A stretch of 64,000 nucleotides of DNA from Flavobacteriales bacterium. Its GTDB lineage: Bacteria > Bacteroidota > Bacteroidia > Flavobacteriales_D > Sanyastnellaceae. Numbering within the stretch: position 1 is the stretch's first letter; each line of letters opens with the position of its first letter. The notes under the pieces are model-generated. The model searched no databases and was not told the DNA's origin. It worked only from the letters and a program-made list of their open reading frames with translations. Made by a program: the position numbers and the translations under genes. This document shows, one piece after another, positions 440 through 62,162 of this stretch. The stretch lies in the NCBI GenBank assembly GCA_044338665.1, contig JBIIWZ010000010.1, forward strand, positions 4,447 to 68,446. Direction: 5' to 3'.

Positions 440-610
440 GCCAGTTGCGATTTAGTTAAGAATTTTAGTTATCGGTATGTGACAATTTCGAGAAAGTGTT
501 TGCTTTCAAAAAATCGCTGTATTCCAAATATAGAAAGAAAATGAGAAAACCAAATTCTTTTTAACAAAAAAAGTTGTGATTCGGAGTAAGATTAAATTCG
601 GTTTCCAGAT

Positions 611-654
611 CTTCCAACGGACCTTTCGAAGAACCTTTCGAAGAATCTACGAAG
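611..654. repeat. backbone AAGGT/ACCTT repeat family, short ACCTT-arm copy (E1)
   Basis: cttccaacggacctttcgaagaacctttcgaagaatctacgaag. It shares the terminal motif CTTTCGAAGAATC with copies E6 and E7 and overlaps the pgk stop codon. Confidence 0.6.
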
Positions 655-3570: not shown

Positions 3571-3760
3571 GAAGATGCGAAGATAGGCAATTCTTTGAAA
3601 GATGCGAAGCAAGGTCCGGAGGAAGGTGCTGCGCAAGGTCCGGGGGAAGAGAAGTATACCAAACACAAAAACCTCCGATTGGAGGTTTGAAAAAATACTG
3701 TATTAACTACCGACAGGTCCTACCGAAGGTCCTATTGGAAGATACTACCGAAAGTCTTTG
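3571..3760. repeat. degenerate AAGGT-type repeat copies flanking a hairpin (E3)
   Basis: gatgcgaagcaaggtccggaggaaggtgctgcgcaaggtcc and caggtcctaccgaaggtcctattggaag. No CGCTTCGCGTAGCG core is present. Confidence 0.45.
3669..3688 (-). terminator. hairpin with T-run on the minus strand, between rpmF and fabH
   Basis: aaacctcc-gatt-ggaggttt. On the minus strand it is followed by TTTTGTGTTT. Confidence 0.4.
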
Positions 3761-3968: not shown

Positions 3969-4499
3969 TTATTCTTCCTCGTCGGAAGGATCAAATTCAT
4001 CGGTATCAAAATCTTTCAAGTCTTTCCAGATGCTGTCTGCGTTTTCTTCTACTCGGTATGTATTCAAGGCTCCTAAAACAACTGGGTTACAGTCGGCTTC
4101 TTTGTTATGTATTCTTCTTGAAGGAAGAGATAACAATGCCATTTCAAACATACGTCGTTTAATATCCAATTGGTATTCACTTGGTCCAAGTGTCCAAACA
4201 TCGTCTTCGTCGGTGTTTGTCTTGTCTCCAAATTTCACTAAAAGGTGATCAACGTTTTCAACGTGAATCCAAGTGTCTTCGGCACATCTGTCGCAGGGCA
4301 ATAAGACTTCTCCTTCCACCTGCAAATCGAGGATAAGCATGTTTTGTTTTTTGTCTAAAGTGCCTGTGACATTCAGTTTTGATTCTTGAATTTCACTGTC
4401 GGGAAAGTCTGCAAAGAACGTTTTATCCAGTTGGAATTCTAACTCATGCGTTCCAATTTTCCAGCCTGAAAAGTTCAGGATATAAAGTGAATCTTGCAT
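3969..4499 (-). CDS. YceD/DUF177 family protein
   Basis: Trimmed to MQDSLYILNF (cat at 4497-4499). It has the CDRC motif and an acidic tail, and sits in the conserved position upstream of rpmF. The 86 extra N-terminal residues of the tracked ORF translate the repeat E4. Confidence 0.85.
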   Translation of the reverse strand: MQDSLYILNFSGWKIGTHELEFQLDKTFFADFPDSEIQESKLNVTGTLDKKQNMLILDLQVEGEVLLPCDRCAEDTWIHVENVDHLLVKFGDKTNTDEDDVWTLGPSEYQLDIKRRMFEMALLSLPSRRIHNKEADCNPVVLGALNTYRVEENADSIWKDLKDFDTDEFDPSDEEE

Positions 4500-4560
4500 A
4501 GATAGATTTTCAAAAGGACGGCAAAGATACGTTTCTTTTTTGGAAAAACAACATGCGGAG

Positions 4561-4750
4561 CAAGATTCTTCGAAAGGTGCTTTGCAAGGTCCTACAGAAG
4601 GTTCTTCGAAAGGTGCTTTGCAAGGTCCTACAGAAGGTTCTTCGAAAGGTGCTTCGCGTAGCGACCTTCTAAAAGACCTTGCATTGCATCTTGAAACAGG
4701 TCCTGCGGAAGGTGTTTCACAAGGTCTGACGAAGGTGGGTAGCAAGGGAA
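4561..4750 (+). repeat. backbone AAGGT/ACCTT hairpin repeat (E4)
   Basis: Units ttcgaaaggtgctttgcaaggtcctacagaagg, core cttcgcgtagcgacc at 4652-4666, then ACCTT arms. Confidence 0.8.
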
Positions 4751-4873
4751 AGTGCATTTAAATAAAGGAATTTATGCTTCTGGAAGTAAGCACTGACAAG
4801 GGCTGTAGAGAAATGTAGGAATAAGTGTTTGTAGAGGTGAAAGGAATAAAGTCACATTTTTGAAAGAAAAAAG

Positions 4874-5235: not shown

Positions 5236-5390
5236 CCCTTGCGAAGAACCTGTTTCAAAATGCATTGTAAGGTCTTTCAGAAGGTGCTTAGCAAGGTCCG
5301 ATGTAAGGTCCCGAGGAAGGTCGCTACGCGAAGTCTACTTGCGAAGCACCTTGCATAGCACCTTCGTAAGACCTTTCATCGAAACTTCCA
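5236..5390 (-). repeat. backbone AAGGT/ACCTT hairpin repeat, inverted orientation (E5)
   Basis: Core ggtcgctacgcgaag at 5319-5333 is the exact reverse complement of 4652-4666. Segment 5247-5286 is an inverted repeat of 4663-4702 (34/40 by hand). Confidence 0.8.
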
Positions 5391-9218: not shown

Positions 9219-11300
9219 ATGAAAATTTTGAAATCTCTTTTAGTGGTTGCTCTTGGAATTGCAAGCACAGGAATATTTGCTCAGGAAGAGCACTTGTATT
9301 GTGGCGAGCGTGAAAATCGCGTGCGCATGTTCGGCATGTATCCTGAAGCCGAAGGAATCGCCCGTCGTGCAGGAGAAGCCCTTGAAACTTACACCGAAAA
9401 TTTCGTTGATAATGCGCCCGAGCGAGGGTCACAAACCATTTATACCATTCCTGTTGTATTTCATGTCATTCATAACAATGGAACAGAAAACATCTCTGAC
9501 GATCAGATTTTAAACGGTCTTTCGATTTTAAATCGCGATTACGCTATGTTGAACTCCGATATTAGCTTAGTTGTAACCGCATTTGAAAACATAACTGCCG
9601 ATATAGGTATTGAATTCGTGTTGGCAACCAAAGACCCTAATGGCAATTGCACACGAGGAATAAACAGAATTGTTTCACCTCTTACCTCTGATGGTGGACA
9701 AGACATGAAGGATCTCATTATTTGGCCGCGAAATAAATATTTAAATATTTGGATTTGCCTAGATGCTGCTGGGGCTGCTGGTTATACCAATTTACCAGGT
9801 GACGTTGCTGGATTTTGGGGAGCTGGTACAGATGGTATAGTGGTGCGCTCTGACTATGTGGGAGCTATCGGAACAAGCACTTCCCAACGCAGTCGAACCC
9901 TCACGCATGAAGTGGGACATTGGTTGAACTTATACCACACATGGGGTCCTGGTAACTCTCCTGGAGTTTCTACGAATTGCAATCAAGATGATAATGTAAC
10001 GGATACGCCAAACACAATCGGTTGGACCAGTTGTTCACTGACCGGAAGTTCATGCGGAAATACCGTGGACAACGTTCAGAATTACATGGAGTATTCTTAC
10101 TGTTCACGCATGTTTACCCAAGGGCAGCGCACACGCATGCGTGCTGCGATTACGAGTAGCGTTGCTCAACGCAGTAGTCTAATTACAGCTTCAAATTTAT
10201 TGGCTACAGGGGTAACAAATCCTGCACTTTGTGTTGCCGATTTCGAATTCGATAAAAATATTTTATGCGATGGAGACAGCGTGTCTTTCACCGACATCTC
10301 ATACCACGGAATAACATCTTGGAATTGGAATTTCGGAGACGGTGTAACACTTGTGGGCAGCGATCCCGCTGTTCATCAAAATCCAATACACACCTACAAC
10401 ACACCTGGAACTTTCACTGTTACACTTACGGTTAGCAACGGAGCTGATCAACTTTCAAAAACGTATTCAAACGTTATTACTGTTTTGGGTGGTGCAGGAA
10501 TGAACACACCATTGATGGAAGGATTTGAAGGGACTTGGCCTGGCAACAACTGGTTCGTGAACAACCCAGATTTGGACGAAACATGGCAAGTGGTTAATAC
10601 CAATTACAGCGGCGCTAAAGGATTGAAACTTGCTAATTTCACCAGCGAATCTGGACACGTAGACGAATTCATTTCGAACACCTTCGACATGAGCGCTATG
10701 GATACCATTTTCGTGAGCTACAAATGGGCTTACGCAAGTAGAGTTTCGGTAACCGATGATCGCCTTCGCGTTAGTGCATCAGGAGATTGCGGAACTTCAT
10801 GGACCCTTGCTAGAATTCGCAAAGGAACAACCAACTTACCAACCGGAACAGCGACTAACCTTGCCTTCACTCCGAGTTCAACAGCTCAATGGAGCGGTGA
10901 AACGCTTACGCTAACCGCGCAAAATTACATGACCGATCACTTCCAATTGAAATATGAATTCATAAGTTACGGTGGAAATAATCTATACCTTGACGATATC
11001 AATATCACAGTTGTAGACACGCTTGGAAATTATATTGAAATGACAGAGTCTCCTCTAGAAGTTTCGCTTTATCCAAATCCAACAAGCGATGCAGCAACGC
11101 TCGTTCTTGGAAGCGCTGCTCACAAGAAAACCAGCGTTGTCTTGTTTAACAGTGCAGGGGAAATCGTTGACCAGATTTACAACGGAAATCTAAGTGTGGG
11201 AACACATACATTTTCAATTCCGAAACATGCTGCTGGTTTCTACATTGTTCAAATTCAAAGTGGAAACTCGGTAACACACCGAAAACTTATTTTCGAGTAA
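9219..11300 (+). CDS. secreted M43-type zinc metalloprotease with PKD domain and T9SS C-terminal sorting domain
   Basis: Start MKILKSLLVVALGIASTGIFAQ (signal peptide). HEVGHWLNLYHTW zinc site, PKD-like WNWNFGDG...TFTVTLTVSNG, and a C-terminal LYPNP...GFYIVQIQ T9SS CTD. Confidence 0.85.
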   Translation: MKILKSLLVVALGIASTGIFAQEEHLYCGERENRVRMFGMYPEAEGIARRAGEALETYTENFVDNAPERGSQTIYTIPVVFHVIHNNGTENISDDQILNGLSILNRDYAMLNSDISLVVTAFENITADIGIEFVLATKDPNGNCTRGINRIVSPLTSDGGQDMKDLIIWPRNKYLNIWICLDAAGAAGYTNLPGDVAGFWGAGTDGIVVRSDYVGAIGTSTSQRSRTLTHEVGHWLNLYHTWGPGNSPGVSTNCNQDDNVTDTPNTIGWTSCSLTGSSCGNTVDNVQNYMEYSYCSRMFTQGQRTRMRAAITSSVAQRSSLITASNLLATGVTNPALCVADFEFDKNILCDGDSVSFTDISYHGITSWNWNFGDGVTLVGSDPAVHQNPIHTYNTPGTFTVTLTVSNGADQLSKTYSNVITVLGGAGMNTPLMEGFEGTWPGNNWFVNNPDLDETWQVVNTNYSGAKGLKLANFTSESGHVDEFISNTFDMSAMDTIFVSYKWAYASRVSVTDDRLRVSASGDCGTSWTLARIRKGTTNLPTGTATNLAFTPSSTAQWSGETLTLTAQNYMTDHFQLKYEFISYGGNNLYLDDINITVVDTLGNYIEMTESPLEVSLYPNPTSDAATLVLGSAAHKKTSVVLFNSAGEIVDQIYNGNLSVGTHTFSIPKHAAGFYIVQIQSGNSVTHRKLIFE

Positions 11301-11345
11301 GTTTCCTTGAACAAACTTGGCTTGTAGTTGTTAACTTTGTTTAAT

Positions 11346-13283
11346 ATGTCGACATTCACTCCAGGCCCTCTACTCGCTCAATTCGATAATCCCATTGCCC
11401 TTCGCAATGGCTTAAAAGACGAGCAACTCAAACAATTGTGTACAGAACTTCGTCAGTACATTGTTGACATTGTTTCTGAAAAAGGCGGACACTTCGGAGC
11501 AAGTTTAGGTGTGGTTGAAATGACCGTTGCTCTTCATTACGTTTTCGAAACACCCTACGATCAATTGATTTGGGACGTTGGGCACCAGGCATACGGACAT
11601 AAAATCTTAACGGGAAGAAGAGACAATTTCCACACAAATAGAATTTACAAAGGTCTTTCGGGTTTCCCGAAAAGAAGCGAAAGCGAATACGATACGTTTG
11701 GAGTTGGACACAGTTCCACTTCAATCTCTGCAGCCATTGGAATGGCAGTTGCTAGCAAAGTGAAAGAAGAAAAAGACCGCCAAGTTATTGCCGTTATTGG
11801 CGATGGAGCCATGACTGCAGGTCTCGCCTTCGAAGGTCTGAACCACGGTTCTACAGCGGATTGCAACGTGCTTGTTGTGTTGAACGACAATTGCATGAGC
11901 ATTGACCCGAATGTGGGTGCGTTGAAAGAATACTTAACAGACATCACTACTTCACACACGTACAATAAAGTGAAAGACGATGTGTGGCAGTTGTTGGGAA
12001 AGGTTTCGAAATTCGGACCGAACGCGCAACACATTGCACACAAAATTTCTGAAGCACTGAAAGGCACGTTAATCAAAGAAAGTAATTATTTCGAATCGTT
12101 GAAGTGGAGATACTTCGGTCCAATTGACGGGCACGATGTGGACTATATGGTGAAGGTGATGCGCGATTTGAAAGACATTCCTGGTCCAAAAATTTTGCAC
12201 TGTGTTACGAAGAAAGGAAAAGGCTACGCTCCAGCAGAGGCGGGCTCTCCAACGAAGTGGCACGCACCTGGACTCTTCAACAAAGAGACCGGAGAAATTG
12301 TAAAAGTGGTTCCGAAAAATCCACAACCGCCGTTGTACCAAGATGTATTCGGACATACCATTATTGAATTAGCAGAGAAGAACGAAAAGATAGTAGGGGT
12401 TACTCCTGCCATGCCAAGTGGTTGTTCATTGAAACTGATGATGGAGGCTATGCCGAAGCGTGCCTTCGACGTAGGAATTGCAGAGCAGCACGCGGTTACT
12501 TTTTCTGCGGGAATGGCTACGCAAGGACTTGTTCCTTTCTGTAATATTTATTCAAGCTTCATGCAACGCGCCTATGACCAAGTCATTCATGACGTTGCCA
12601 TTCAAAAATTAAATGTAGTTTTCTGTTTAGATCGCGGTGGATTGGTTGGTGCCGATGGCCCTACACACCACGGAGCCTATGACCTTGCTTACATGCGCTG
12701 CATTCCAAACATGGTCGTTTCAAGCCCAATGAACGAAAGTGAATTGCGCGATTTGATGTTCACCGGACAGCTTCCAGACCAAGGTCCGTTTAGCATTCGT
12801 TATCCGAGAGGTAACGGTGTTCTAACCGACTGGAAAACACCTATGAAAGAAATTAAAGTAGGTACTGGAAGGAAGATAAAATCAGGAGACGACGTTGCTA
12901 TTTTAACGATAGGTCCAATTGGAAATTATGCTGTGAAGGCATGCGAAGCATTAGCAGATCAAGGCATTTCAGCAGCACATTACGACATGCGTTTCGCGAA
13001 ACCAATTGATGAATTAATGCTTCATGAAGTCTTCGGAAAATTCAAACATGTGATTACCGTAGAAGACGGATGTGTTCAAGGTGGAATGGGCAGTGCAGTA
13101 ATTGAATTCATGGCCGATAACGGTTACACCTCTCAAGTGAAGCGTCTGGGAATTCCTGATCAATACATAGAACACGGAACACAAGATCAGCTCTATGCAG
13201 AATGCGGTTACGATGTAGCTGGAATGGTTCGCACAGCAGTGGAATTGGTTGGAAAAGAAGCAGCACAATCTTTAGGAGCGTGA
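11346..13283 (+). CDS. dxs: 1-deoxy-D-xylulose-5-phosphate synthase
   Basis: ATG at 11346. Contains [19 protein letters not shown] (ThDP motif) and [13 protein letters not shown]. Confidence 0.97.
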
Positions 13284-14089
13284 TAAATTCTTCCAACGAA
13301 CAAATTCTTCATTACTCTATTTTCAATCACGACAGCTCGAATGAATGGGTAACCTTCATTCACGGAGCCGGCGGTAGCAGTGCCATCTGGTTCAAACAGA
13401 TTCGCGCATTTCAAAAACACTTCAACGTTTTACTCATCGATCTACGCGGTCACGGACAATCGAAAAATGTTCGTCCGCTTAAAAAAGAAAAATATAACTT
13501 CGAAGAAATAGGCAACGAAGTCATTGAAGTGCTTGAACATTTGAAAATCAAATGCACCCACTTCGTTGGAATTTCCATGGGAACCATTGTCATTCGTGAC
13601 ATTAGCGAACGCGCAACAACACTCGTGAAATCAATGATACTGGCCGGAGCTACCATGAAGTTGAATGTTCGCGGACAGTTTCTCATGCGATTTGGCGACA
13701 CTTTCAAGTCGCTAATTCCTTATCTCATCCTTTACAGACTTTTCGCCTTCATTATTATGCCGAAAAAAAGCAATTCGGAAGCGCGAAACTTATTCATTCA
13801 AGAAGCGAAAAAACTCGAGCAAACCGAATTCAAAAAGTGGTTCGGATTAGTTACTCAAGTGAATCCGCTCCTTTCTTCCTTCCGAAAAAAAGAAACCACC
13901 GCAAAGACGCTCTACGTCATGGGCGCAGAAGACCATATGTTTCTTCCTTCCATAAAAAAACTCGCTTTGCGATTCTCTTCCTCTGAACTCATCGTTGTTC
14001 CCAACAGCGGTCATGTGGTGAATATTGAGAAGCCGGTGGAGTTTAATGAAATCTGTATTTCGTTTTTGAGTAATAACTCAAAGATCTAA
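13280..14089 (+). CDS. alpha/beta hydrolase
   Basis: HGAGGSS, GISMGT nucleophile elbow, and a SGH catalytic His region. The start is placed at a GTG that overlaps the dxs stop (GTGA); the start is uncertain. Confidence 0.75.
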
Positions 14090-14346
14090 CGAAGGTGTTT
14101 TACAAGGTTCTTCGAAAGGTCTACGAAGGTGTTTTACAAGGTTCTTCGAAAGGTCTACGAAGGTGTTTTACAAGGTCTTTCAGAAGGTCTACGAAGGTGT
14201 TTTACAAGGTCTTTCAGAAGGTCTACGAAGGTGTTTTACAAGGTCTTTCAGAAGGTCTACGAAGGTGCGTTGCAAGGACGCTTCGCGTAGCGACCTTCCT
14301 CAGGACCTTTCGTAGAACCTTGTAACGCGCCTTCGAAGAATCTTCC
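14089..14346 (+). repeat. backbone AAGGT/ACCTT hairpin repeat with 5 tandem 34-bp units (E6)
   Basis: gaaggtgttttacaaggt(t/c)(c/t)ttc(g/a)(a/g)aaggtctac starts at 14091, 14125, 14159, 14193 and 14227 (period 34). It is followed by the core gcaaggacgcttcgcgtagcgacctt, an ACCTT arm, and the end motif cttcgaagaatc. Confidence 0.85.
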
Positions 14347-16671: not shown

Positions 16672-16685
16672 GCGTTAGATGTTGC

Positions 16686-16873
16686 ACAAGGTCCTGTGGA
16701 AGGTGTGTTACAAGGTTCTTCGAAAGGTGTATCACAAGGTTCTTCGAAAGGTGCTTTGCAAGGACGCTTCGCGTAGCGACCTTCATCTGACCTTGCGTAG
16801 CACCTTCTGAAAGACCTTCATAGAACTTCGTAGACCTTCTGCAAGATCTTGTAACACACCTTTCGAAGAATCC
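16686..16873 (+). repeat. backbone AAGGT/ACCTT hairpin repeat (E7)
   Basis: The left arm has 24-nt units (aggtgtgttacaaggttcttcgaa). Core gcaaggacgcttcgcgtagcgaccttc. The right arm is roughly the reverse complement of the left, and the copy ends in ctttcgaagaatc. Confidence 0.85.
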
Positions 16874-16888
16874 TTATCTTTGAATCCC

Positions 16889-23942: not shown

Positions 23943-25091
23943 TTATCGGCTGATTATCAAGGAAAAAACCCGTGGATAATCCTTTATGGAAATGAAATAC
24001 CTGCCATTCGGCAAGTCGGAAACATCGAGGTCTGAATGGCTTCGAATCCGAGTCTTCAAAACCAGCTTTCCCTCGCCATTCCTCATTTCCAGACACAAGG
24101 ACTTGTTCGGAGATTGAATGTGAACGGTGTCTTTCGCCGGATTGGGATAGATGCGAATTTCCGAAGACTCGGAATCAATGTTGTTTCCCGAAAGGTATTC
24201 TCCGAGAACAGGAGTCAAATCGAACTTGTGCAACTTCTGCTGATTCGTAATAAAGCTTTGGCTAAAGTATTCATTGGTTAGATACACGTCTATTCCGTTG
24301 GTGGTTGATACGCCTTCCACCTGGTGAAAATTCAAAGACAAATTTATTTTTTGTTGGAAGGAAGAGAAGAAATCTGTTCCTTCAAAATCGAAAAGCAAAT
24401 ACATGAATGGCTGAAGCAAAGAAGAGTAACCAGAGAGAATGACTAACTTTTTTGAAGGAATAAATGTCGCTCCGGTTATTAATCCATTTACATCTGAAGA
24501 GTCTTTTCGATGTGCCAAATAATTCCCTGGGATTTTAGGTAAACTGTAACAAACAGTGGTTTGATTGTCCCAATTCTTTGTGAAAAGAAATAGGCTGTCG
24601 GTTCCGGCTATGAAGGCCTCGCAATCGAAGGCCGTATTTTGGTTGGAAGGCGTGAAGTCTATTTGATCTTCGTAAGCGAAGGCAATGGTGTCTATTGCAG
24701 GCGTGCCTTCAAGAAGAGAAGATTTTTCAATTCGAAGAATATGCAAATCTGTTCTGTTTCCAGCGTTGTTTCCGAAATCTCCGACATACAAATACAAGCT
24801 GTCTTGGGCGATTTCTTCCCAATCGAAATTGGAAGTTCCAAGTAGTGCAAAGGTTTGAAGAATTGCACCATTCAAGGTGTCGATCACATATAAATTCTCA
24901 TCTGAATTATCGTTGTGTGTTAGCAATCCCTGTTGAAAAAAAACGAGTCCCGATGTTTCAGATATTTCCGATGAAAGTTGCACGGAATAAACGGGCGAAA
25001 GGGTAACGGTTGGAAGGTTGGGTTGGGCGAAAACTCCCACACAAATACTTTGCAATAAAAAGATGAGAAAAATTCTTGCAAGAGCCTTCAT
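23943..25091 (-). CDS. secreted protein with T9SS C-terminal sorting domain
   Basis: Signal peptide MKALARIFLIFLLQSICVGVFAQ. C-terminal IRIYPNPAKDTVHIQ...GRYFISI. Confidence 0.75.
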   Translation of the reverse strand: MKALARIFLIFLLQSICVGVFAQPNLPTVTLSPVYSVQLSSEISETSGLVFFQQGLLTHNDNSDENLYVIDTLNGAILQTFALLGTSNFDWEEIAQDSLYLYVGDFGNNAGNRTDLHILRIEKSSLLEGTPAIDTIAFAYEDQIDFTPSNQNTAFDCEAFIAGTDSLFLFTKNWDNQTTVCYSLPKIPGNYLAHRKDSSDVNGLITGATFIPSKKLVILSGYSSLLQPFMYLLFDFEGTDFFSSFQQKINLSLNFHQVEGVSTTNGIDVYLTNEYFSQSFITNQQKLHKFDLTPVLGEYLSGNNIDSESSEIRIYPNPAKDTVHIQSPNKSLCLEMRNGEGKLVLKTRIRSHSDLDVSDLPNGRYFISIKDYPRVFSLIISR

Positions 25092-25147: not shown

Positions 25148-27094
25148 ATGAAACGAATTGAATCGTTTGAAGAATATAAATCGGTGTACGCGGAAAGCAT
25201 TGCTAATCCTAATAAATTCTGGGGTGAAATAGCTGAATCTTTTTCTTGGAAAAAGAAATGGGACACTGTTCTATCGGGAACCTTCGCCGATGCAAAAACC
25301 CGATGGTTCGACGGAGGTGAATTGAACATTACTGAAAATTTACTCGACAGACATTTGGCTGAAAAAGGAAATGAAACTGCACTCATTTGGGAACCGAATG
25401 AACGTTCGGTTCAGGTGCGTTCATTCACGTATACTGAACTTCATAAAGAAGTTTGTATCGCTGCTGAAATGCTTCGCACGATGGGTGTTCAAAAAGGAGA
25501 TCGTGTTTGTATTTACATGAGCATGGTGCCTGAGTTGGTGTTCAGTGTGCTCGCCTGCGCGCGCATTGGGGCGGTGCATTCTGTTATTTTCGGCGGATTC
25601 AGCGCACGAAGCATTGCAGATCGCGTAGACGATGCTGAAGCAGACTTCGTGATAACCATGGACGGGGGACTTCGCGGAAACAAGATTATTCCATTGAAGT
25701 CGGTGGTGGATGAAGCATTGAATTCAACAAGAAAAATAAAAAATGTTTTGGTCTTCAACTACCTCAACCTTCCAACCGAAAAAAAAGAAGTAGATATCGA
25801 TTGGAAGAAATTGAAAGGAAAAGTTCTTTCCTCCAATAATTATATGAAGCCCGGAGCGACGCTTCAATCGGAAGATCCTTCGTTCATCTTGTACACCAGC
25901 GGATCAACGGGCAAACCGAAAGGCGTTGTGCACAGCACTGCGGGTTACATGGTATGGACGGCCTATACTTTTTTGAATGTGTTTCAATACGAAAAAGGAG
26001 ATATTCATTTTTGTACTGCCGATATTGGATGGGTTACAGGGCACAGTTATTTGATCTATGGACCTTTGCTGAACGGTGCTACTTCATTGATGTTTGAAGG
26101 CATTCCAACTTATCCCGATGCTGGAAGATTTTGGGACATTGTAGCGAAGCACAAAGTGAGTATTTTCTACACGGCTCCAACGGCCATTCGCAGTTTAATG
26201 TCGGCCGGAGATGAATTTTTAGAAGGAAAAGATTTGTCTTCGTTGCGCATACTCGGAAGCGTTGGCGAACCCATTAACGAAGAAGCTTGGAATTGGTACC
26301 ACGATAAAATTGGAAAAGGAAATTGTCCGGTTGTCGATACTTTTTGGCAAACGGAAACAGGCGGTGTTATGATCTCGAGTTTAGCCGGAGTAACGCCATC
26401 GAAACCGGTGTTTGCTACGTTGCCTATGCCGGGGGTTCTTCCTGTTTTGTTGGATGATAAAGGGAATGAAATTCTTGAAAACGATTTAACCGGAAACCTG
26501 TGTTTCAAACAGTCGTGGCCTTCTATGATTCGCACCACGTATGGCGACCACGAGCGTTGTATTTTGAATTACTTCAGCACATATAAAAATTATTACTTCA
26601 CCGGTGACGGCGCTTACCGTGACGAGAAAGGAATGTATCGTTTAGCAGGAAGGGTTGACGATGTGTTGAATGTTAGCGGACACCGTATAGGCACTGCTGA
26701 AGTGGAGAACGCGATTAATCATACGCACGGTGTTATTGAAAGCGCTGTAGTTGGGTATCCGCATGACATTAAGGGGCAAGGAATCTATGCGTTTGTGATT
26801 TGTGCAGAGCAAGGTGGTGAACAAGATGCGATGCAAGGTCCTACGGAAGGTGCTTCGCAAGGGTTTGAGCAGGAGATGGTTTATTCCATTACCAAAACAG
26901 TGAGTGAGCAGATTGGGGCGATTGCGAAACCGGATAAAATCGTAATTGTAAGCGGTCTTCCGAAAACGAGAAGTGGAAAGATTATGCGTCGCATTTTAAG
27001 GAAAATTGCTGAAGGGGAATTCGATGCTATTGGCGATACGACTACCTTACTTGATCCGAGTGTGGTTAAAGAAATTATTGACAAAGCGAAATAA
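25148..27094 (+). CDS. acs: acetyl-CoA synthetase
   Basis: 648 aa. Contains YTSGSTGKPKG, WQTETGG and LPKTRSGKIMRRILRKIA. Confidence 0.97.
   Translation: MKRIESFEEYKSVYAESIANPNKFWGEIAESFSWKKKWDTVLSGTFADAKTRWFDGGELNITENLLDRHLAEKGNETALIWEPNERSVQVRSFTYTELHKEVCIAAEMLRTMGVQKGDRVCIYMSMVPELVFSVLACARIGAVHSVIFGGFSARSIADRVDDAEADFVITMDGGLRGNKIIPLKSVVDEALNSTRKIKNVLVFNYLNLPTEKKEVDIDWKKLKGKVLSSNNYMKPGATLQSEDPSFILYTSGSTGKPKGVVHSTAGYMVWTAYTFLNVFQYEKGDIHFCTADIGWVTGHSYLIYGPLLNGATSLMFEGIPTYPDAGRFWDIVAKHKVSIFYTAPTAIRSLMSAGDEFLEGKDLSSLRILGSVGEPINEEAWNWYHDKIGKGNCPVVDTFWQTETGGVMISSLAGVTPSKPVFATLPMPGVLPVLLDDKGNEILENDLTGNLCFKQSWPSMIRTTYGDHERCILNYFSTYKNYYFTGDGAYRDEKGMYRLAGRVDDVLNVSGHRIGTAEVENAINHTHGVIESAVVGYPHDIKGQGIYAFVICAEQGGEQDAMQGPTEGASQGFEQEMVYSITKTVSEQIGAIAKPDKIVIVSGLPKTRSGKIMRRILRKIAEGEFDAIGDTTTLLDPSVVKEIIDKAK
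26810..26869 (+). repeat. in-frame 12-nt-periodic AAGGT repeat copy inside acs (E8)
   Basis: caaggtggtgaa caagatgcgatg caaggtcctacg gaaggtgcttcg caagggtttgag encodes QGGEQDAMQGPTEGASQGFE. The segment gcaaggtcctacggaaggtgcttcgc nearly matches intergenic copy E4 (ttgcaaggtcctacagaaggt ... ggtgcttcgcg). Confidence 0.75.
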
Positions 27095-29493: not shown

Positions 29494-30048
29494 CTACATC
29501 TGTCCGTCTGGCCGGTTATATACTATTGTCATTTTTTTTTCAAAAGCTGAAGTAGAAATTTCTAATTCCCAAGATTTGTCAATTGTCGGAAGTGCTTTTT
29601 TAGAATGGTCTAAAAACCTAAACCAACCCCGTGTCTCCTCTGTTATCTTAAAGCTCTGGTTGTTGTCACAAAATACGTCTAAGCAAATATTGTCAGTGAC
29701 ATAGTGGTCCTCTTTATATCCATGCATTGATATAATTTCTGTCCACTGAATCGATTGTACACCCTCGTTTGTTTTTATTGAAAAGCCTAAGTCGCTGAAG
29801 GTGAAAATACCGTTATCTGTGTAAATTTCTTTAAAATTCTTTTCGTTTTGATCTTTATAACCTGTGATATTTTGGTCAGAAATCTCAACTCTTCTGATGG
29901 TTGATCTGAAGAATTTTATAATGAAAAAGATTGTTCCGCCACCAAAAAAGATAGTCCCAACCCAACTAAATGCCAAGCCTCTTGAAATACCCCAAGCAGA
30001 TAAACTGGTCATCATAAGTCCAATTAATATGTTTCTTCTTGCTTTCAT
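29494..30048 (-). CDS. hypothetical membrane-anchored protein (two N-terminal TM helices)
   Basis: 184 aa. Hydrophobic N-terminus ILIGLMMTSLSAWG and WVGTIFFGGGTIFFIIKFF. Its start overlaps the stop of the upstream gene by 4 nt. Confidence 0.55.
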   Translation of the reverse strand: MKARRNILIGLMMTSLSAWGISRGLAFSWVGTIFFGGGTIFFIIKFFRSTIRRVEISDQNITGYKDQNEKNFKEIYTDNGIFTFSDLGFSIKTNEGVQSIQWTEIISMHGYKEDHYVTDNICLDVFCDNNQSFKITEETRGWFRFLDHSKKALPTIDKSWELEISTSAFEKKMTIVYNRPDGQM

Positions 30049-30485
30049 TTTCCGTGAGTTATTCTAATAACCTTGCTGTCTCGACCGTCAATAATTATTG
30101 AAAACGTCCCGCCCTTCATACCCGAAGGAAGTGTTCCTTCAATTAACCAATAATTGTCTTTGAAGTAAATTTCGTAAGGTCGTTGATTTATTATGTTTTC
30201 TTTGCCGTAAATACTGAAGAGGATTGGTTCGGCTACATTTATTGCAGTTACACTGTCTTTAATAATTGCAGTATTGTTGTGAATTAAGTTGTGCTTTGAG
30301 CTGTCGACAAGGGAAGATTGAAGTTCCTGCTCTGCTTGAACTTGTGAAGTTGTCGGCTTAAATCCTTTGCCATTGTCACAGGTGTCACTTTCGAAAACAA
30401 CAAAGTCTTGAACATGCTTTCTTTCTGAGTCGTTACAACTAACCAAAAATAATATGATCAATTTAGAGATTGTTCGTCTTATCAT
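30045..30485 (-). CDS. NTF2-fold immunity protein-like lipoprotein
   Basis: Start MIRRTISKLIILFLVSC (lipobox). The C-terminal AINVAEPILFSIYGKENIINQRPYEIYFKDNYWLIEGTLPSGMKGGTFSIIIDGRDSKVIRITHGK matches, from memory, the pattern of the Imm-NTF2-2 family of polymorphic-toxin immunity proteins. Confidence 0.5.
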   Translation of the reverse strand: MIRRTISKLIILFLVSCNDSERKHVQDFVVFESDTCDNGKGFKPTTSQVQAEQELQSSLVDSSKHNLIHNNTAIIKDSVTAINVAEPILFSIYGKENIINQRPYEIYFKDNYWLIEGTLPSGMKGGTFSIIIDGRDSKVIRITHGK

Positions 30486-30522
30486 AACAGCCACTTTTGC
30501 CAAACTGATGCTGGGAGTAGAT

Positions 30523-31365
30523 TTACTCTGCGTTACATCCATATTCTCTGTCTTTTGGCGATTTCAAACAATGTCCACTAAAGAATAAATCTAAAGTTGG
30601 TGGATTATATCTTTCGTGAGTTACTTTCATTAATTTCGGATAATTAGCTAATGCGATTTTTGCTTTTTTCAGAACAATTTCTTCCATTAAATCAGGTGCT
30701 TCCGAATTAAAAATCATTTCAACTTTGTCTATTTTTCCATTTTTTTTGAAAGTAACATTTACTATGCATGAGCTTTCTTCATCAAATTGATTTCTTTCAT
30801 CTATTGTAATTTCTTGCAGTATTAATTTTTTAATGGAGTCGGACAATCTTCTTTCTGCTGGAAATATCTGTTTGTCATTGTACTTAACATATTCTTTTAT
30901 TTCCGTATTTTTAATTTTACCATTTTCAAATTTGTAATAAATTTCTTTCTCATAAATAGACATATAGCCCATATGGACGTATTGAATTAGTTGTCCTTTT
31001 GGTTGTATAATGGTGTGATTAACCCAATTAGCAAAGACGTTTGAAGTTCCAAATTCTATTTTAACATCCAAATCAATAGGGTTTTTACCACAATAATCTG
31101 TTTGTATTCTGACTAAAAACAAACTGTCATTTTGCAACTTCCAAGTTGCGACATATCCTCTCCATAGTGCCGTGCAACTACCTTGCATTTCCTCGCCATT
31201 TATAGTCCGCGTACCTTTTCTATCAAAGTATCCCTCTAACGGATTTGAATTGATCTCAAATGTGTCTTTCGAAATAATTAAGAGGTCGCCAAACTGGGCA
31301 GTCCCCAATACCTCAGTGATTTGCGTTAGGGTAAAAAAAATAAGTATTAAAGTTCTAAGGTTCAT
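30523..31365 (-). CDS. hypothetical secreted protein
   Basis: Trimmed to MNLRTLILIFFTLTQITEVLGTAQ (signal peptide). 280 aa. Confidence 0.55.
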   Translation of the reverse strand: MNLRTLILIFFTLTQITEVLGTAQFGDLLIISKDTFEINSNPLEGYFDRKGTRTINGEEMQGSCTALWRGYVATWKLQNDSLFLVRIQTDYCGKNPIDLDVKIEFGTSNVFANWVNHTIIQPKGQLIQYVHMGYMSIYEKEIYYKFENGKIKNTEIKEYVKYNDKQIFPAERRLSDSIKKLILQEITIDERNQFDEESSCIVNVTFKKNGKIDKVEMIFNSEAPDLMEEIVLKKAKIALANYPKLMKVTHERYNPPTLDLFFSGHCLKSPKDREYGCNAE

Positions 31366-39873: not shown

Positions 39874-40524
39874 ATGACAACTTACGAATACGCGGTAGTC
39901 TTAACGAGCGCAACAGAAATTGTTGCTGTTGCTGCCGCTATTTTCTACAAAGTGTATAAAACCAAATTCGGTTTCATTCTGTTCTTGTTTCCGCTTAGTT
40001 CACTCATTGCCGACTCAATGATTATCTATAACAACTACGGCTATATGCCCATTGGTATGATTTATCACGTGTTTTCACTGTTCAACTCATGGGTGTTATT
40101 CAAAGCTATTCAAGTGTTTTCAAGAAAAGAATTGAAGCTTATTCTGCTTGCCATCGTTATCTTCAGTTGCTTCATTGTTCATATCGTTGTAAAAACTTTC
40201 CAAACCCAGACGCCACACCCCGATGTATTTCAAGGCATTTCCTCCATTTTCATTGCCTTTCTTGGAACTATTGGAACCTTCAGATTAATTAAAAAAGCCG
40301 ATTCGAAAAAAAACGGAATCTCTTACTATTTCCAAGCAATTGTGAGTGTCACGATTTTCTATTTCATTATGTTCACCCCACTTATAGGTTTTCATCTCAT
40401 ATACTACAATCAAATTGATGCAAGCCTTTGTTCATACCTATTGATCTGGTGCCCCTTGGCTAACATTTTTAGAAACATTATACTCATACGTCTCTTCTTT
40501 GTAGGCCGACAAGCCATGCTATGA
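39874..40524 (+). CDS. 7-TM membrane protein, translationally coupled to the histidine kinase
   Basis: 216 aa with seven hydrophobic segments. ATGA stop/start overlap with 40521. Confidence 0.6.
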   Translation: MTTYEYAVVLTSATEIVAVAAAIFYKVYKTKFGFILFLFPLSSLIADSMIIYNNYGYMPIGMIYHVFSLFNSWVLFKAIQVFSRKELKLILLAIVIFSCFIVHIVVKTFQTQTPHPDVFQGISSIFIAFLGTIGTFRLIKKADSKKNGISYYFQAIVSVTIFYFIMFTPLIGFHLIYYNQIDASLCSYLLIWCPLANIFRNIILIRLFFVGRQAML

Positions 40525-41303
40525 ACCCAGTTGAATTCGCCATCCTTGCAGGAATTGTAATTGCCGCGCTAGCACTATTGCTAGTAGGTATACTTTTCTT
40601 TGCTATGCGCAAGGTTATTCAAAACTCGAGACAAGAAGAGTTTCACAAAACAGAACTTCAAAAAGCCATTATTGCCACACAAGAATCGGAACGCGAAGAA
40701 ATGGCCAACAACCTTCACGACGACATTGGCCCACAATTGAACATTCTTGCACACAAGCTTATTGAACAAGACTCTAACCTCTACCGCACTTCCTTCCAAC
40801 GTGAAGAAATGAACGAGATTCAAGACATTGTGGAAACACTTACCCTTGATCTGCGCAGATACACCACGGCTATCTTCCCGCATGTGGTGCGCACGCAAGG
40901 ACTTATTGCTGCCCTTCGAATTACCCTTCAACACTTTCAACCGCAATGGGAAATAACTTTTCAGTCGACCATGTCTGAAGATAAGGTATTCCCCGACTCG
41001 TTCGCCCTTCCTGTCTTTCGCATCTACAACGAACTGCTAAACAACCTGGCGAAACACGCCAAACCCGGACAAGTAGATGTTGAACTATATTTCAACTACA
41101 ACCAATTCATTGTTCACATAGATCACAACGGAGATGGACTTAAACAAGAAGAATTCATGCACCACGCTCAACAAGCCAAAGGACGCGGTTGCTCTTCCAT
41201 ACTGAATAGAATAGACCAATTGCACGGCACCATTCACTTTTGGAACAACATAGAAATTTCGAAAATAACCATTGACATTCCGTATGAGCAGCCCAAAAAT
41301 TAA
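40521..41303 (+). CDS. intramembrane-type sensor histidine kinase (HisKA_3 / NarX-LiaS class)
   Basis: A single N-terminal TM helix and no extracytoplasmic domain. H-box NNLHDDIGPQL, N-box YNELLNNLAKHA, and G-boxes DHNGDG and GRGCSSI. Confidence 0.8.
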   Translation: MNPVEFAILAGIVIAALALLLVGILFFAMRKVIQNSRQEEFHKTELQKAIIATQESEREEMANNLHDDIGPQLNILAHKLIEQDSNLYRTSFQREEMNEIQDIVETLTLDLRRYTTAIFPHVVRTQGLIAALRITLQHFQPQWEITFQSTMSEDKVFPDSFALPVFRIYNELLNNLAKHAKPGQVDVELYFNYNQFIVHIDHNGDGLKQEEFMHHAQQAKGRGCSSILNRIDQLHGTIHFWNNIEISKITIDIPYEQPKN

Positions 41304-41931
41304 AGTCGTCTTGGTCGACGACCATACCATTTTGCGAAACGGTATAAAAAGCATTTTATCGAAAGACTATAAAAAGCGCTTCGACATTGTGGCTGAATAT
41401 TCCAATGGAAAAGAATTCTTGAACGATTTAGAAAATGTCATATTTGATGTGGTGCTGCTCGATTTAAACATGCCGGTGAAAGGTGGAGAAAACACATTGG
41501 AAATACTTCAGCTTTCTCATCCGAATGTAAGATCCATTGTCCTTACCCAGCTAAGTATGGACTACATGGTTGAATCGTGCGCGCGTCTGGGTGCGCGGGC
41601 TTTTCTTCCAAAAGAAGTAAAACCGTTGGAACTGAAACGCGCCATTGAAACCGTGCATGCCGATGGTTATTATTTCAATCAATTGTTTTCGGAAGAAACG
41701 TTGCAGAATTTGTCTTTTCGGAAAAAGAAAAACGAGCAATTGACCCTTCAGGAAAAGCGCGTGTTGCGACACATTGTTAACGGATCTACATCACACGAGA
41801 TTGCAGATTTACTCGGACTAAGCGAAAGCACCATTAAGAGCCATCGCGAGAACATTCATCGAAAACTTAACACATCCAATCCGTATGAATTGGCGACTTA
41901 TTGCATTCGAAATGGGATTGTTGTGGAATGA
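41284..41931 (+). CDS. LuxR/NarL-family response regulator
   Basis: Start MSSPKIKVVLVDDH. Receiver domain with VLLDLNMP. C-terminal HTH LTLQEKRVLRHIVNGSTSHEIADLLGLSESTIKSHRENIHRKL. Confidence 0.85.
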   Translation: MSSPKIKVVLVDDHTILRNGIKSILSKDYKKRFDIVAEYSNGKEFLNDLENVIFDVVLLDLNMPVKGGENTLEILQLSHPNVRSIVLTQLSMDYMVESCARLGARAFLPKEVKPLELKRAIETVHADGYYFNQLFSEETLQNLSFRKKKNEQLTLQEKRVLRHIVNGSTSHEIADLLGLSESTIKSHRENIHRKLNTSNPYELATYCIRNGIVVE

Positions 41932-59354: not shown

Positions 59355-60842
59355 TTAATTAAAGCGTGGTGAAATTTTCAAAATGCCATCTGAATCTTCC
59401 ATAAATGCTTTGCATGAAGTTAAATACTCTTGCATATTCTCCATGCTTTCATCATATACATTGGCACTGAACTGATGTGCTCTTTGGAGCATTTTAATGT
59501 AGGTGTCGCACTTTCCCTGCTTCGTGAATTTCTTCAATGCTCCCATATAGTCTTCACGGTAAACGGTTGGAATGATAATTTTCGATTGCTCGGCTTTTAC
59601 CAATTCGGCATTCATCATCACACGCGCTATACGACCGTTGCCATCCAAGAAAGGATGCACCTCACTCATCACAAACATTATATAGGCAGCTTTTGCGAAA
59701 GGATGATCCAAGGCTGAATAAAATCCAAAGCTCTGTTCCAATGTTCCCCTCACCAAATTAAAATCCACAAAGGCTGTACTTCCAGCAAAATTATTCTTGT
59801 CCTTAAAAAGACCTGGATTTTTATCTACCCTAGCACGGAGCAATATCGAATGTCGTAACGATATTATTTTCAAAAACTCCTCTGGCGATGAAGGTGTAAC
59901 CTCCATTTCCTTTTTATTTGATACAATCTGATATGTACCCAACACATCATGACTATCATCGTTTCTTGCAGGAATTGGCTTATTGGATTGAATGATTTGT
60001 TTTGCTTCTTCAATTTCAAAAACAGTTCCCTCAATGTAATTTGAAAAATAGCTTTCAAAAAAAGCGAAGTTCCGGAATGATGTAGGTGTTGTATTTTTCT
60101 CTTCCCTGAACGGGAATTCTGTTTGCTTTAATTCACGAAACAACGTTTCAAATAATTCTAGCCTTGCAGGATCATAAGGCTTTCCAAATGCCCTCGCTTT
60201 TGCCAAAGGAGAACTAAGAATTTTAGATGTTTTCGTTGTCAGCAATGCGCTAATCAAACGATTTAATCTTTCAAATTCTTCAGGCATCTCCAACTTATCG
60301 GCAAGGTCTCTAGCTCGATCTCTCAACTTGTTGATTTCAACCTCGCCATTCACTCGTATTATTTGCTCTAAACGCTCCTCTATTTCGGGTAAACTCAAAC
60401 ACTTTGATTCACTACCTAATTTCCTGGATGCTTGCAAATTTTCCAGAAAAGCACGTGCTTTCTGAGAAGCGTGCAATTCACCAGAAAATTTATTGTCCCC
60501 TTCTATCGGTGAAGGGCCATTGAGAAATTGGATAGTAATTCCAGGAAGTTTTACTTTTTTAGTGTAGCTCGTAGTTAAAAATATCTTCCCCGTTTTAGTT
60601 GGCTGAAATTCAAAAGCAGAGCGATGGCTAAGCATTGTTCCTGGGTAGAGCGTTCCTAAAATATGAAAGAGATTTCTTCGGATAATGCCTTCAATTGGTT
60701 CTTCTAAATTTGAAGAATACACCCTTGGTGCAATTTTTCTAATGACCCCAGCCGATAACAATTTTGTTATTTGTTTAGAAATCTTAGAATCCTGCGAACT
60801 GCAGATTACCTCTTGCAAGTGAATTGGGCGATTTTTTTCCAT
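59355..60842 (-). CDS. Fic family protein with an AbiEi-like N-terminal winged-helix module
   Basis: Fic motif HPFLDGNGRIARVMMN. N-terminal ISKQITKLLSAGVIRKIAPRVYSS ... KIFLTTSYTKKVKLPGITIQFLNG parallels AbiEi IRKSLSRIVVSGKLERMGQGIYVV ... KLVYLTSGHSKRIQIGKSAIVFKS. Confidence 0.8.
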   Translation of the reverse strand: MEKNRPIHLQEVICSSQDSKISKQITKLLSAGVIRKIAPRVYSSNLEEPIEGIIRRNLFHILGTLYPGTMLSHRSAFEFQPTKTGKIFLTTSYTKKVKLPGITIQFLNGPSPIEGDNKFSGELHASQKARAFLENLQASRKLGSESKCLSLPEIEERLEQIIRVNGEVEINKLRDRARDLADKLEMPEEFERLNRLISALLTTKTSKILSSPLAKARAFGKPYDPARLELFETLFRELKQTEFPFREEKNTTPTSFRNFAFFESYFSNYIEGTVFEIEEAKQIIQSNKPIPARNDDSHDVLGTYQIVSNKKEMEVTPSSPEEFLKIISLRHSILLRARVDKNPGLFKDKNNFAGSTAFVDFNLVRGTLEQSFGFYSALDHPFAKAAYIMFVMSEVHPFLDGNGRIARVMMNAELVKAEQSKIIIPTVYREDYMGALKKFTKQGKCDTYIKMLQRAHQFSANVYDESMENMQEYLTSCKAFMEDSDGILKISPRFN

Positions 60843-60974
60843 TATTCATCAGATCTGACACAAGATTAGCTAAATTTTTCCACTATAAAGCCATTTTGGG
60901 AAAATATTTTCCAGTAAGAAGATTGCGTTAATTAGTAGGTTTCTCAAAATATTAGCAACCCATAAAGGTGAATT

Positions 60975-61044
60975 GGGATTCGAATCTTTACTAAAAACCT
61001 TGTGTTTCCATGTGTTTCAGAAGACCCTTAATCCTTGACGCTCC
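60975..61044 (+). repeat. island-bounding direct repeat, copy 2 (att-like)
   Basis: gggattcgaatctttactaaaaaccttgtgtttccatgtgtttcagaagacccttaatccttgacgctcc. It matches copy 1 at 63/70 positions. It has no acceptor/CCA sequence to its left. Confidence 0.8.
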
Positions 61045-61130
61045 AAAGAAATACTCTGCTACGATTTCGCCAATCCCTGGTAATTAAAAAATCCCGTTTC
61101 GAGCGAATATGTGAGGACCGAAGATTGAGG

Positions 61131-62162
61131 TTATTCCTTTCCGTTGAACTTATCCTCGAGCAGTTTTGCAGCTAGCATAATCTCCTCGAATGTTGGTGCA
61201 TTACCATAGATCATCTCTGAACGCATAACTTCATAGTCATTCTTCAGTGCGTGAAGAATTTCATTATCCGGCACAATTGAAATGCTTCCGGGAATCAACG
61301 AGGTGTAATCGAAACGTTTCAATCTTGAATAAAACTTTCGATGCTCAATTACTTCGTTGATAAAAATTTCGTTGTTCATTGTGTCGGATGAAAAATCTTG
61401 TCTTCCCAAATGAAACAAATCGTAATAATGTCTAGACATACGTTCTGTTCGCATCTTATCTCGCTCATCGCGATTGTACTCTTCGTGTAGCAATAAAATC
61501 TTTTCCACCAGTGTTCTTTGCGGATGAATGGTAAGTACTTCAACGTCTTCTTCAACGTAGTTCGAATTCGGGAAATATGTGACCAAAAGAGATTTCATAC
61601 TTCGCATAACACTCGGTTCTCTCATCGAACGAACACTGAATTCTATTTTCACACTGTCTCGCAGATAGGGATTCGGATCGAATAACGAAATGAAATTCAC
61701 ATAAATACTCTGCGGATCGGTATCGGGCATATCCGCTCGCACCGGCTCCGCCTCTATCGAGTACAAATTTTCGGGAACTTGTGATTCAACAAATTTAGAT
61801 TTTAATGCCTCTAGCAGCTGATTTGAAGTAAACGCACATCCTGCTCTTCGCAATTGTTCAACATAGTTTTTAGTAGGTGTTTGCTTATACGTCATTCCAA
61901 CTGCTTCGGAGCTTAGCGATATATCAATATCTTCAGAAAAACGATCAATTAAATGCCAGCCTTTACTCAATGAAGTCCCCCCCTTAAAGGCGAAATAATT
62001 GGCATACTTCGTTTCGAACAATAGCTTTATTGAAAGTGTGACCCACCAATCTTTTTCAATTGCCTTTGCCGGTATTCCTGAAATTCGAGACGCTTCGTTT
62101 ATTGACGCCAATCGTGAAGCATCGCTTAAGTTCTTTAACCAACCAATCATTCTACCTGGCAT
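61131..62162 (-). CDS. AbiEii/AbiGii family nucleotidyltransferase toxin
   Basis: AIEKDWWVT and FKGGTSLSKGW..IDRFSEDIDI motifs. Overlaps abiEi by 11 nt. Confidence 0.85.
   Translation of the reverse strand: MPGRMIGWLKNLSDASRLASINEASRISGIPAKAIEKDWWVTLSIKLLFETKYANYFAFKGGTSLSKGWHLIDRFSEDIDISLSSEAVGMTYKQTPTKNYVEQLRRAGCAFTSNQLLEALKSKFVESQVPENLYSIEAEPVRADMPDTDPQSIYVNFISLFDPNPYLRDSVKIEFSVRSMREPSVMRSMKSLLVTYFPNSNYVEEDVEVLTIHPQRTLVEKILLLHEEYNRDERDKMRTERMSRHYYDLFHLGRQDFSSDTMNNEIFINEVIEHRKFYSRLKRFDYTSLIPGSISIVPDNEILHALKNDYEVMRSEMIYGNAPTFEEIMLAAKLLEDKFNGKE

Follow-up and report, generated by a model that had tools for sequence, protein, structure and literature searches.

The window analysed here, a stretch of 64,000 nucleotides from contig JBIIWZ010000010.1 (GenBank assembly GCA_044338665.1, Flavobacteriales bacterium), contains acs, a gene predicted to encode AMP-forming acetyl-CoA synthetase, whose coding sequence holds an in-frame array of 12-nt repeats. 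Arrays of the same repeat family occupy intergenic regions of the first 17 kb of the window. The features within acs are the following.

25148-27094, plus strand: acs, AMP-forming acetyl-CoA synthetase, the host gene, 648 amino acids (aa), assigned from the list of open reading frames (ORFs), Pfam and a PDB match.
26810-26869, plus strand: five in-frame 12-nt repeat units in acs, encoding QGGEQDAMQGPTEGASQGFE.
26804-26887, plus strand: the whole segment that differs from repeat-free alleles, AEQGGEQDAMQGPTEGASQGFEQEMVYS, delimited by comparison of alleles at the DNA and protein levels.

In the precomputed Pfam assignments the acs product carries the domains ACAS_N, AMP-binding and AMP-binding_C (PF16177, PF00501 and PF13193), its C-terminal 214 aa match Acs of S. 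enterica (PDB 2P20) with E=2.9e-56, and the A10 motif PKTRSGK of acetyl-CoA synthetases is present as LPKTRSGKIMRR. With these domains and this motif the product is predicted to be an AMP-forming acetyl-CoA synthetase. The five repeat units read, in order, caaggtggtgaa, caagatgcgatg, caaggtcctacg, gaaggtgcttcg and caagggtttgag, and their translation in the acs frame confirms the array that the original prediction had placed at 26810-26869. Counted from the AAGG anchor, the units span 26811-26870, four of them with AAGG and one with AAGA. The whole segment 26804-26887 comprises 28 codons versus 14 in repeat-free alleles (NPHHHLEDQEQIHA), a net gain of 42 nt. The period of 12 nt had been proposed to preserve the reading frame, which is true of every allele seen.

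The acs units belong to the same 12-nt AAGGT/AAGAT family as the intergenic arrays. The 25-mer GCAAGGTCCTACGGAAGGTGCTTCG at 26833-26857 recurs with two mismatches each at 4584-4608 and 4620-4644, where a near match (4590-4660) had been noted, and has no match in 100 shuffles. The pattern AAGGT-N7-AAGGT-N7-AAGG, with at most one mismatch, matches 41 times in the window versus 0.03 expected, and all 41 matches fall in seven intergenic clusters and acs. Aligned locally to the intergenic arrays, the insert reaches a score of 27.5 and shares 35 of 40 nucleotides with 3599-3638; none of about 3,500 controls in total attains this score. These controls included 1,497 random 60-mers of the window (mean score 8.6, standard deviation 1.1, maximum 13), 1,000 shuffles of the insert (top score 14) and 1,000 synonymous recodings of the insert peptide (top score 26.5, 0/1,000 reaching 27.5). 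Since the synonymous recodings all score below the insert, the similarity lies in the nucleotide sequence and does not simply follow from the encoded peptide; the proposed nucleotide relationship thus stands above chance in a proper alignment. Spacers are shared as well: of the 25 coding unit types, 13 are also found in intergenic arrays and account for 94 of the 118 unit instances in acs alleles, and acs alleles of relatives hold runs resembling intergenic arrays (e.g., caaggtgcattgcaaggttcttcgaaaggtcctgcggaagg).

Seven intergenic gaps within 0.6-17 kb of the window are almost filled by 12-nt arrays, which are flanked by pgk, efp, fabH, yceD, accB, a hydrolase gene, a TonB-dependent receptor gene and tdk, regarded here as housekeeping genes.

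602-645, minus strand: short array directly downstream of pgk, with the common terminal unit AGATTCTTCGAA at its end.
2421-2564: array between efp and fabH, with nine plus-strand units, a central palindrome at 2517-2540 and a short inverted arm.
3599-3740: array between fabH and rpmF/yceD, in which 3599-3638 matches the acs insert best at the nucleotide level (35/40).
4562-4724: array upstream of yceD, with a 36-nt higher-order repeat in which the 25-mer of acs recurs with two mismatches.
5269-5364: array upstream of accB whose core, at 5317-5333, is a variant one.
14081-14343: array between the alpha/beta hydrolase gene and the TonB-dependent receptor gene, with a 34-nt higher-order repeat, a core at 14274-14297 and an inverted arm.
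16678-16872: array between the TonB-dependent receptor gene and tdk, forming a long but imperfect palindrome whose core lies at 16760-16783.

Each 12-nt unit consists of an AAGGT or AAGAT anchor and a 7-nt spacer; read as AGG followed by T-x-y-n-n-n-y'-x'-A, it forms a 3-bp mini-hairpin. One frame of the units reads x'AA-GGT-xyn-nny', which encodes [Q/E/K]-G-x-x and is free of stop codons unless x = A. A typical element is built from an arm of direct units, the GC-rich palindrome AAGGACGCTTCGCGTAGCGACCTT (exact at 2517, 14274 and 16760, and containing GTAG in CGCGTAGCG) and an arm of inverted units. The two arms are inverted copies of each other, and the unit AGATTCTTCGAA caps one outer end in four of the seven elements. 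As RNA, the symmetric element at 16672-16880 folds into a single long hairpin (-80.5 kcal/mol, z = -6.8), and the asymmetric element at 2407-2576 folds not significantly better than its shuffles (z = -1.9). In the 14081-14267 array the 34-nt higher-order period runs for 5.5 copies with 96% matches, and a 10-nt unit, aaggtctacg, breaks the 12-nt register and would lose frame neutrality if it were coding.

Two subfamilies, the G-type (AAGGT) and the A-type (AAGAT), are distinguished by their anchors and have an identical spacer repertoire. The change from G to A corresponds to C-to-T on the complementary ACCTT and is found in every unit; methylation-driven mutation or co-evolution with a binding protein are offered as ideas only for what lies behind the two types. 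Either type may be found at orthologous intergenic sites (fabH-efp; TonB receptor-tdk in L157-L166) of lineages that are only 3-9% diverged. Uniformity of type across a genome was considered and ruled out by contig L152, which carries four A-type loci and one G-type locus.

In strains whose EF-P proteins are identical and whose efp and pgk genes share 91-97% of their nucleotides, the spacer between fabH and efp has four forms. It is empty (19 nt) in L154, a G-type array of 170 or 242 nt in the window and L147, an A-type array of 163 or 389 nt in L152 and L155, and a different sequence of 101 nt in L148-L151, L153 and L156. [quoted passage not shown] The 101-nt form contains two small palindromes, cccgcgacgcgg and cacaacaagttgtg, and may be another small repeat or a terminator.

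An Rfam search gave no match to the repeat family at gathering or E-value thresholds, and our literature searches found no description of it. A scan of contigs with AAGGT(N7)x3-AAGGT returned, among the matches listed, unrelated 6- or 12-nt tandem repeats from all phyla, none with the core palindrome. Of two viral-contig probes, one was without match and the other gave isolated single matches only, with no arrays.

The open frames of the arrays inflate ORF calls. The longest ORF of yceD (3969-4757, minus strand, 262 aa) runs through the array at 4562-4724, its Pfam match is limited to residues 143-250 of 262, and relatives call the gene at 176 aa. Many database ORFs of 60-100 aa (P0122, P0125, P0127 and others) are translated arrays. 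In some relatives accB (biotin carboxyl carrier protein) is called at 196 aa (L148, 988-1578) or 246 aa (L150, 988-1728) versus 161 aa, which may be a genuine N-terminal or linker difference or the effect of an over-extended start.

Among relatives whose Acs is 89-93% identical to that of the window, the protein is 634, 644, 648, 664, 666, 668 or 680 aa long, and every difference in length sits in the repeat linker, which has either no insert (634 aa) or an insert adding 10-46 residues. The repeat-free, or empty, protein reads VIC-N(P/T)HHHLED(Q/H)EQIHA-ITKTVSEQ. Orthologs at 81-93% identity with a 22-residue linker and no repeat exist, so the extra residues are lineage-specific, as anticipated from the window alone. 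Three of the orthologs, P0013, P0014 and P0016 (81-84% identical), are near-identical to the repeat-free linker, and none of the more distant Chitinophagaceae Acs proteins checked carries the repeat; both observations indicate that the empty state is ancestral. Filled linkers are peptides with a 4-residue period, such as QGPAEGGEQGAMQGPAEG and QDSSKDVTQDASRD. The fetched DNA loci comprise five empty and 17 filled distinct linker alleles, 22-68 residues long, and additional variants were found among the proteins returned by a search with the translated repeat.

The net inserts in acs measure 30-138 nt and consist of direct units only, in some alleles organised in a 36-nt higher-order block that encodes GGEQGAMQGPAE. 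No minus-oriented unit and no intact core was found in the acs alleles, which show at most a possible half-core, caagacgcttcgcga; acs carries a one-armed fragment, not a whole element. At the right junction all filled alleles have (Q/K)G(F/Y)(E/D)(Q/K)EM(V/I)YS in common, and all empty alleles end in ...EQI(H/Q)A. The common junction argues for one original insertion event, and the acs insert probably had a single origin. Loci fetched through neighbouring genes form a sample without bias towards an intact acs frame; of these 23 loci, about 15 of them filled and eight empty, 21 have the frame intact. Within the window acs alone among the genes is affected by the repeat, and the protein search with the translated repeat, which was non-exhaustive and missed known full-length filled Acs, returned only Acs fragments and tiny ORFs without domains. 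Across the window and this search, acs is the sole intact host gene found.

The repeat could in principle have arisen inside acs, by slippage of a unit-like run of codons, its likeness to the intergenic arrays being convergent or seeded from acs. A unit-like stretch, gaagatcatgaacaa (E-D-H-E-Q), is present in the empty allele, the first unit of the window, aaggtggtgaac, could derive from it, and the acs-specific types aaggtggtgaac and aagggtttgagc are not among the intergenic arrays sampled. We nevertheless regard such an origin as quite improbable, since 80% of the coding unit instances share intergenic spacer types, at least 10 of them, and convergence on so many 7-nt spacers is implausible. 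Moreover, the intergenic arrays are far more numerous, with seven loci in 17 kb, their central palindrome and inverted arm are absent from acs, and intergenic arrays are still present in genomes with an empty acs (L158, L165). Entry of intergenic repeat sequence into acs accounts for the data better.

All data come from metagenome assemblies, in which repeats can cause chimeric joins, and the insert might be an artefact of reads joined through the repeat into a false in-frame segment. Indeed, in contig L017 the acs 3' end is fused to a fragment of phosphoglucomutase precisely at an array, and assembly gaps (runs of N) lie inside arrays in L146 and L155. An artefact is nonetheless scarcely credible, given that the exact Acs protein of the window is recorded on 24 contigs and that many independent JGI, ENA and NCBI contigs, some longer than 60 kb and with conserved synteny, carry filled alleles in frame with acs on both sides.

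Phosphoglucomutase was also considered as a second host gene, as suggested by L017, a 3-kb contig in which its N-terminal part is joined in frame to the acs 3' end at the array. It was ruled out by L179 and L180, where the phosphoglucomutase ORF stops (TAA) inside or beside the array. This phospho-sugar mutase ORF ends after about 190 residues in or beside an A-type array (L017 1-1560; L179 560-829; L180 1320-1410), and L179 runs on past the stop into the apparent start of another gene. Contig L017 is probably a truncated gene combined with a repeat-mediated chimeric assembly or rearrangement.

Compared with S. enterica Acs (PDB 2P20), the Acs protein of the window has 15 extra residues between the strand ..AIYAYVTL and the helix PELYAEVRNWV, exactly where the linker of E. 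coli Acs had been proposed to be about 15 residues shorter. In an AlphaFold2 model built from 37 sequences, with a mean predicted local distance difference test score (pLDDT) of 72, a strand (546-552) is followed by coil (553-568) and a helix (569-588), and pLDDT falls below 50 over 556-569. The model is consistent with the insert being a disordered loop of the C-terminal domain, where a surface loop had been expected. At the RNA level, folding of the insert region is indistinguishable from that of shuffles (z = -0.07), which speaks against an RNA-structure role.

Outside the linker, the ratio of nonsynonymous to synonymous substitution rates (dN/dS) is 0.04-0.07 between filled alleles, at dS 0.4-0.7, and about the same, 0.036, between empty alleles. 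The acs gene outside the linker is thus under strong purifying selection. The low ratio at such dS between filled alleles indicates that the insert-bearing genes are functional and that the insert is not recent; the loop itself is presumably neutral.

On an acs tree built without the linker, filled and empty alleles are intermixed, and pairwise mismatch profiles of acs are mosaics of identical blocks and blocks that are 6-14% divergent. For example, L002 (filled) and L010 (empty) are almost identical across 1,600 nt; in the two 100-nt blocks at and after the linker site, their mismatches number 9 and 4 per 100 nt. Confinement of the divergence to these blocks indicates that presence or absence of the insert was carried on a recombined patch, and filled and empty alleles are accordingly exchanged by homologous recombination. 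The subtype (G or A) of the acs insert is uncorrelated with that of the nearest intergenic array. Selection in acs as the driver of the change from G to A (Gly to Asp) was prompted by L002, which combines a G-type intergenic array with an A-type acs insert; it was ruled out by the existence of A-type intergenic arrays and by the absence of correlation between acs and neighbouring array types.

A more general role of selection would be that the repeat loop, hypervariable and acidic, could tune the regulation or interactions of Acs, with balancing or diversifying selection keeping both the filled and the empty form. Alleles of both kinds are found together across lineages at dS about 0.5, reshuffled by recombination, the 17 filled alleles include no frameshift, and many coding units carry Asp (AAGAT) instead of Gly. 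However, AAGAT units also build intergenic arrays (L146, L152 and L166), so that the Gly-to-Asp change needs no protein-level selection; acs type does not follow the type of the neighbouring array, and length variation is what is expected of a neutral minisatellite in a tolerant loop. We give a selected loop a small chance. It concerns the consequence of the insert and not its origin, and even so unlikely a proposal is compatible with entry of an intergenic fragment into acs.

The most probable explanation, and one we hold with good confidence, is that a fragment of an intergenic element entered the loop-coding region of acs, was tolerated, and then evolved as a recombining coding minisatellite. 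In this scenario, the fragment would have joined the region of the C-terminal loop in the ancestor of one freshwater Sediminibacterium-like (Chitinophagaceae) clade, as one arm of direct units without the inverted arm, replacing about 14 codons. Three properties may explain its survival: the unit equals four codons, so that gain or loss of units keeps the frame; the frame x'AA-GGT/GAT-xyn-nny' yields a stop-free hydrophilic [Q/E/K]-[G/D]-x-x peptide; and the site is a predicted disordered surface loop. Since entry, units and higher-order blocks would have been gained and lost, presumably by slippage or unequal exchange, as in a coding minisatellite. Filled and empty versions pass between lineages by homologous recombination, which lets both persist, and the enzyme stays functional.

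Several observations weigh against this explanation. No target-site duplication is evident at acs or at the single intergenic pair of empty and filled sites; a duplication of about 21 nt, suggested by EQEMVYS versus EQIHA, was rejected, its nucleotide identity of about 50-60% not being convincing. A Pfam scan of 52 window ORFs revealed no transposase domain, nor was a partner insertion sequence found, and transposition of a complete element is not demonstrated by an acs copy with only one arm and no intact central palindrome. The ancestral acs sequence already holds GAAGATCATGAACAA, which resembles one unit, so that microhomology-templated copying or growth in situ is possible; as a route of entry, microhomology-templated copying is as plausible as transposition. 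The left junction is varied (AEQG, GEQG, VEQG, DAHVMSLKAK, DPHLMNQIFA, SEEGTSKNTT), leaving room for more than one event or for heavy later remodelling of this side. To these points are added the acs-specific unit types, the metagenomic source of the data and a structure model of only moderate confidence.

We also entertain, tentatively, a broader proposal, in our judgement an unlikely one, in which the frame-neutral design of the repeat (four-codon unit, stop-free hydrophilic frame, mini-hairpins) is what allows entry into coding DNA, the acs loop is a maintained dimorphism (filled/empty, G-/A-type) under balancing or diversifying selection, and the parallel AAGGT/AAGAT shift is an active process. 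Candidates for such a process would be a co-evolving trans-acting protein that binds or mobilises the repeat, or a methylation-driven C-to-T hotspot on ACCTT.

The insert had been likened to the Rickettsia palindromic elements (RPEs). In the summary of Ogata et al. 2000 given by PMC10969869, these are complete palindromes that measure about 150 bp with little variation in length and occupy dozens of unrelated genes in an alphaproteobacterium living as an obligate intracellular organism. The analogy holds in so far as a small repeat family that is also intergenic lies in frame in a housekeeping enzyme, where the fold tolerates the translated surface segment. It fails in other respects: instead of a complete palindrome of about 150 bp in frame, acs holds 30-138 nt of direct units without a fold (z = -0.07), a one-armed 12-nt array whose copy number varies between strains in the manner of a minisatellite and whose filled and empty alleles segregate. 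Across the window and the non-exhaustive protein search, moreover, acs is the only intact host gene found, and the array belongs to a free-living freshwater member of the Bacteroidota, and a sequence relationship with the RPEs is not expected.

BrickBuilt, a MITE of Porphyromonas gingivalis containing a minisatellite of 23-nt units, is reported to be always intergenic (PMC4596501). The present family resembles it in its occurrence in Bacteroidota, its short head-to-tail units without spacers, inverted end pieces, multiple intergenic copies and variable unit number. It differs in the length of its units, which at 12 nt is divisible by three whereas 23 nt is not; its element is a long, imperfect palindrome whose centre is GC-rich, and one of its copies is coding.

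Repetitive extragenic palindromic (REP) sequences are palindromes of 20-40 nt and are extragenic by definition, and the GTAG- and CGTC-tagged REPs are mobilised by RAYT transposases. Like REPs and the bacterial interspersed mosaic elements (BIMEs), the family described here has very short hairpin-forming units in high copy number, located intergenically beside gene ends, and its central palindrome contains GTAG; unlike them, it has 12-nt units, 3-bp stems and two inverted arms. No RAYT gene or Y1 transposase was seen within the window. REP/BIME elements, GTAG- and CGTC-tagged REPs among them, are the subject of PMC3733652.

Intragenic ERIC and BOX elements and cyanobacterial MITEs make in-frame fusions as single insertions of whole elements (PMC10969869). 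They are similar in being intergenic families that occasionally lie inside ORFs and add peptide segments, and the acs case differs from those described there by its frame-neutral modular array that varies in length as a coding minisatellite. Bacterial coding variable number tandem repeats (VNTRs) of surface and contingency genes gain and lose units in frame; they usually arise within the gene and affect surface proteins. Like them, the acs array creates length polymorphism of a protein between strains through gain and loss of units. In contrast to coding VNTRs, its units also make up an intergenic family spread across the genome, and it lies in a core metabolic enzyme of the cytosol. The acs case is thus a member of none of the RPE, ERIC/BOX/MITE and BrickBuilt groups and is distinct by its single arm, frame-neutral module, segregating alleles and acs as the sole intact host found.

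Non-coding repeat DNA has here become protein sequence in an enzyme of central metabolism, and the coexistence of ancestral, derived and length-variant alleles in wild populations makes it a natural experiment. It suggests what lets an insertion within a gene persist, namely a period divisible by three, a hydrophilic frame without stops and placement in a surface loop. The repeat family itself, with its fast turnover in freshwater Chitinophagaceae, is undescribed as far as Rfam and literature searches show. Its arrays are also of practical concern, as they break or mis-join metagenome assemblies and lead gene callers to over-extend ORFs.

The neighbourhood of acs varies between contigs. In L161 the segment from alaS to the 5' part of acs is inverted, with breakpoints after IGAIAKP in acs and in a lipocalin-like gene, both of which are truncated (2020-2520 and 11280-11700). 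An array-mediated inversion was ruled out, as the breakpoints lie outside the repeat; the arrangement may be a real inversion or a misassembly. The gene with a type IX secretion system tail (Por_Secre_tail) directly upstream of acs (23943-25091) is absent in L004, L005, L158, L162 and L165, a further presence/absence polymorphism next to acs. Downstream of acs and its neighbour, a gene for a 470-aa membrane protein, about 30 kb of the window (28756-58900) consists mostly of small ORFs without a Pfam match and is free of repeat arrays. This pattern is interrupted by genes for an Imm-NTF2-2 immunity protein (30048-30542), for a two-component pair (40521-41928) and for M48 and PrsW proteases. Relatives hold a gene for a periplasmic binding protein at this place, and the region looks like a strain-specific island. 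Finally, a Fic-domain protein and an AbiEii/AbiEi toxin-antitoxin pair are encoded at 59358-62757 on the minus strand, and an AbiEii gene also adjoins the acs neighbourhood in L166.

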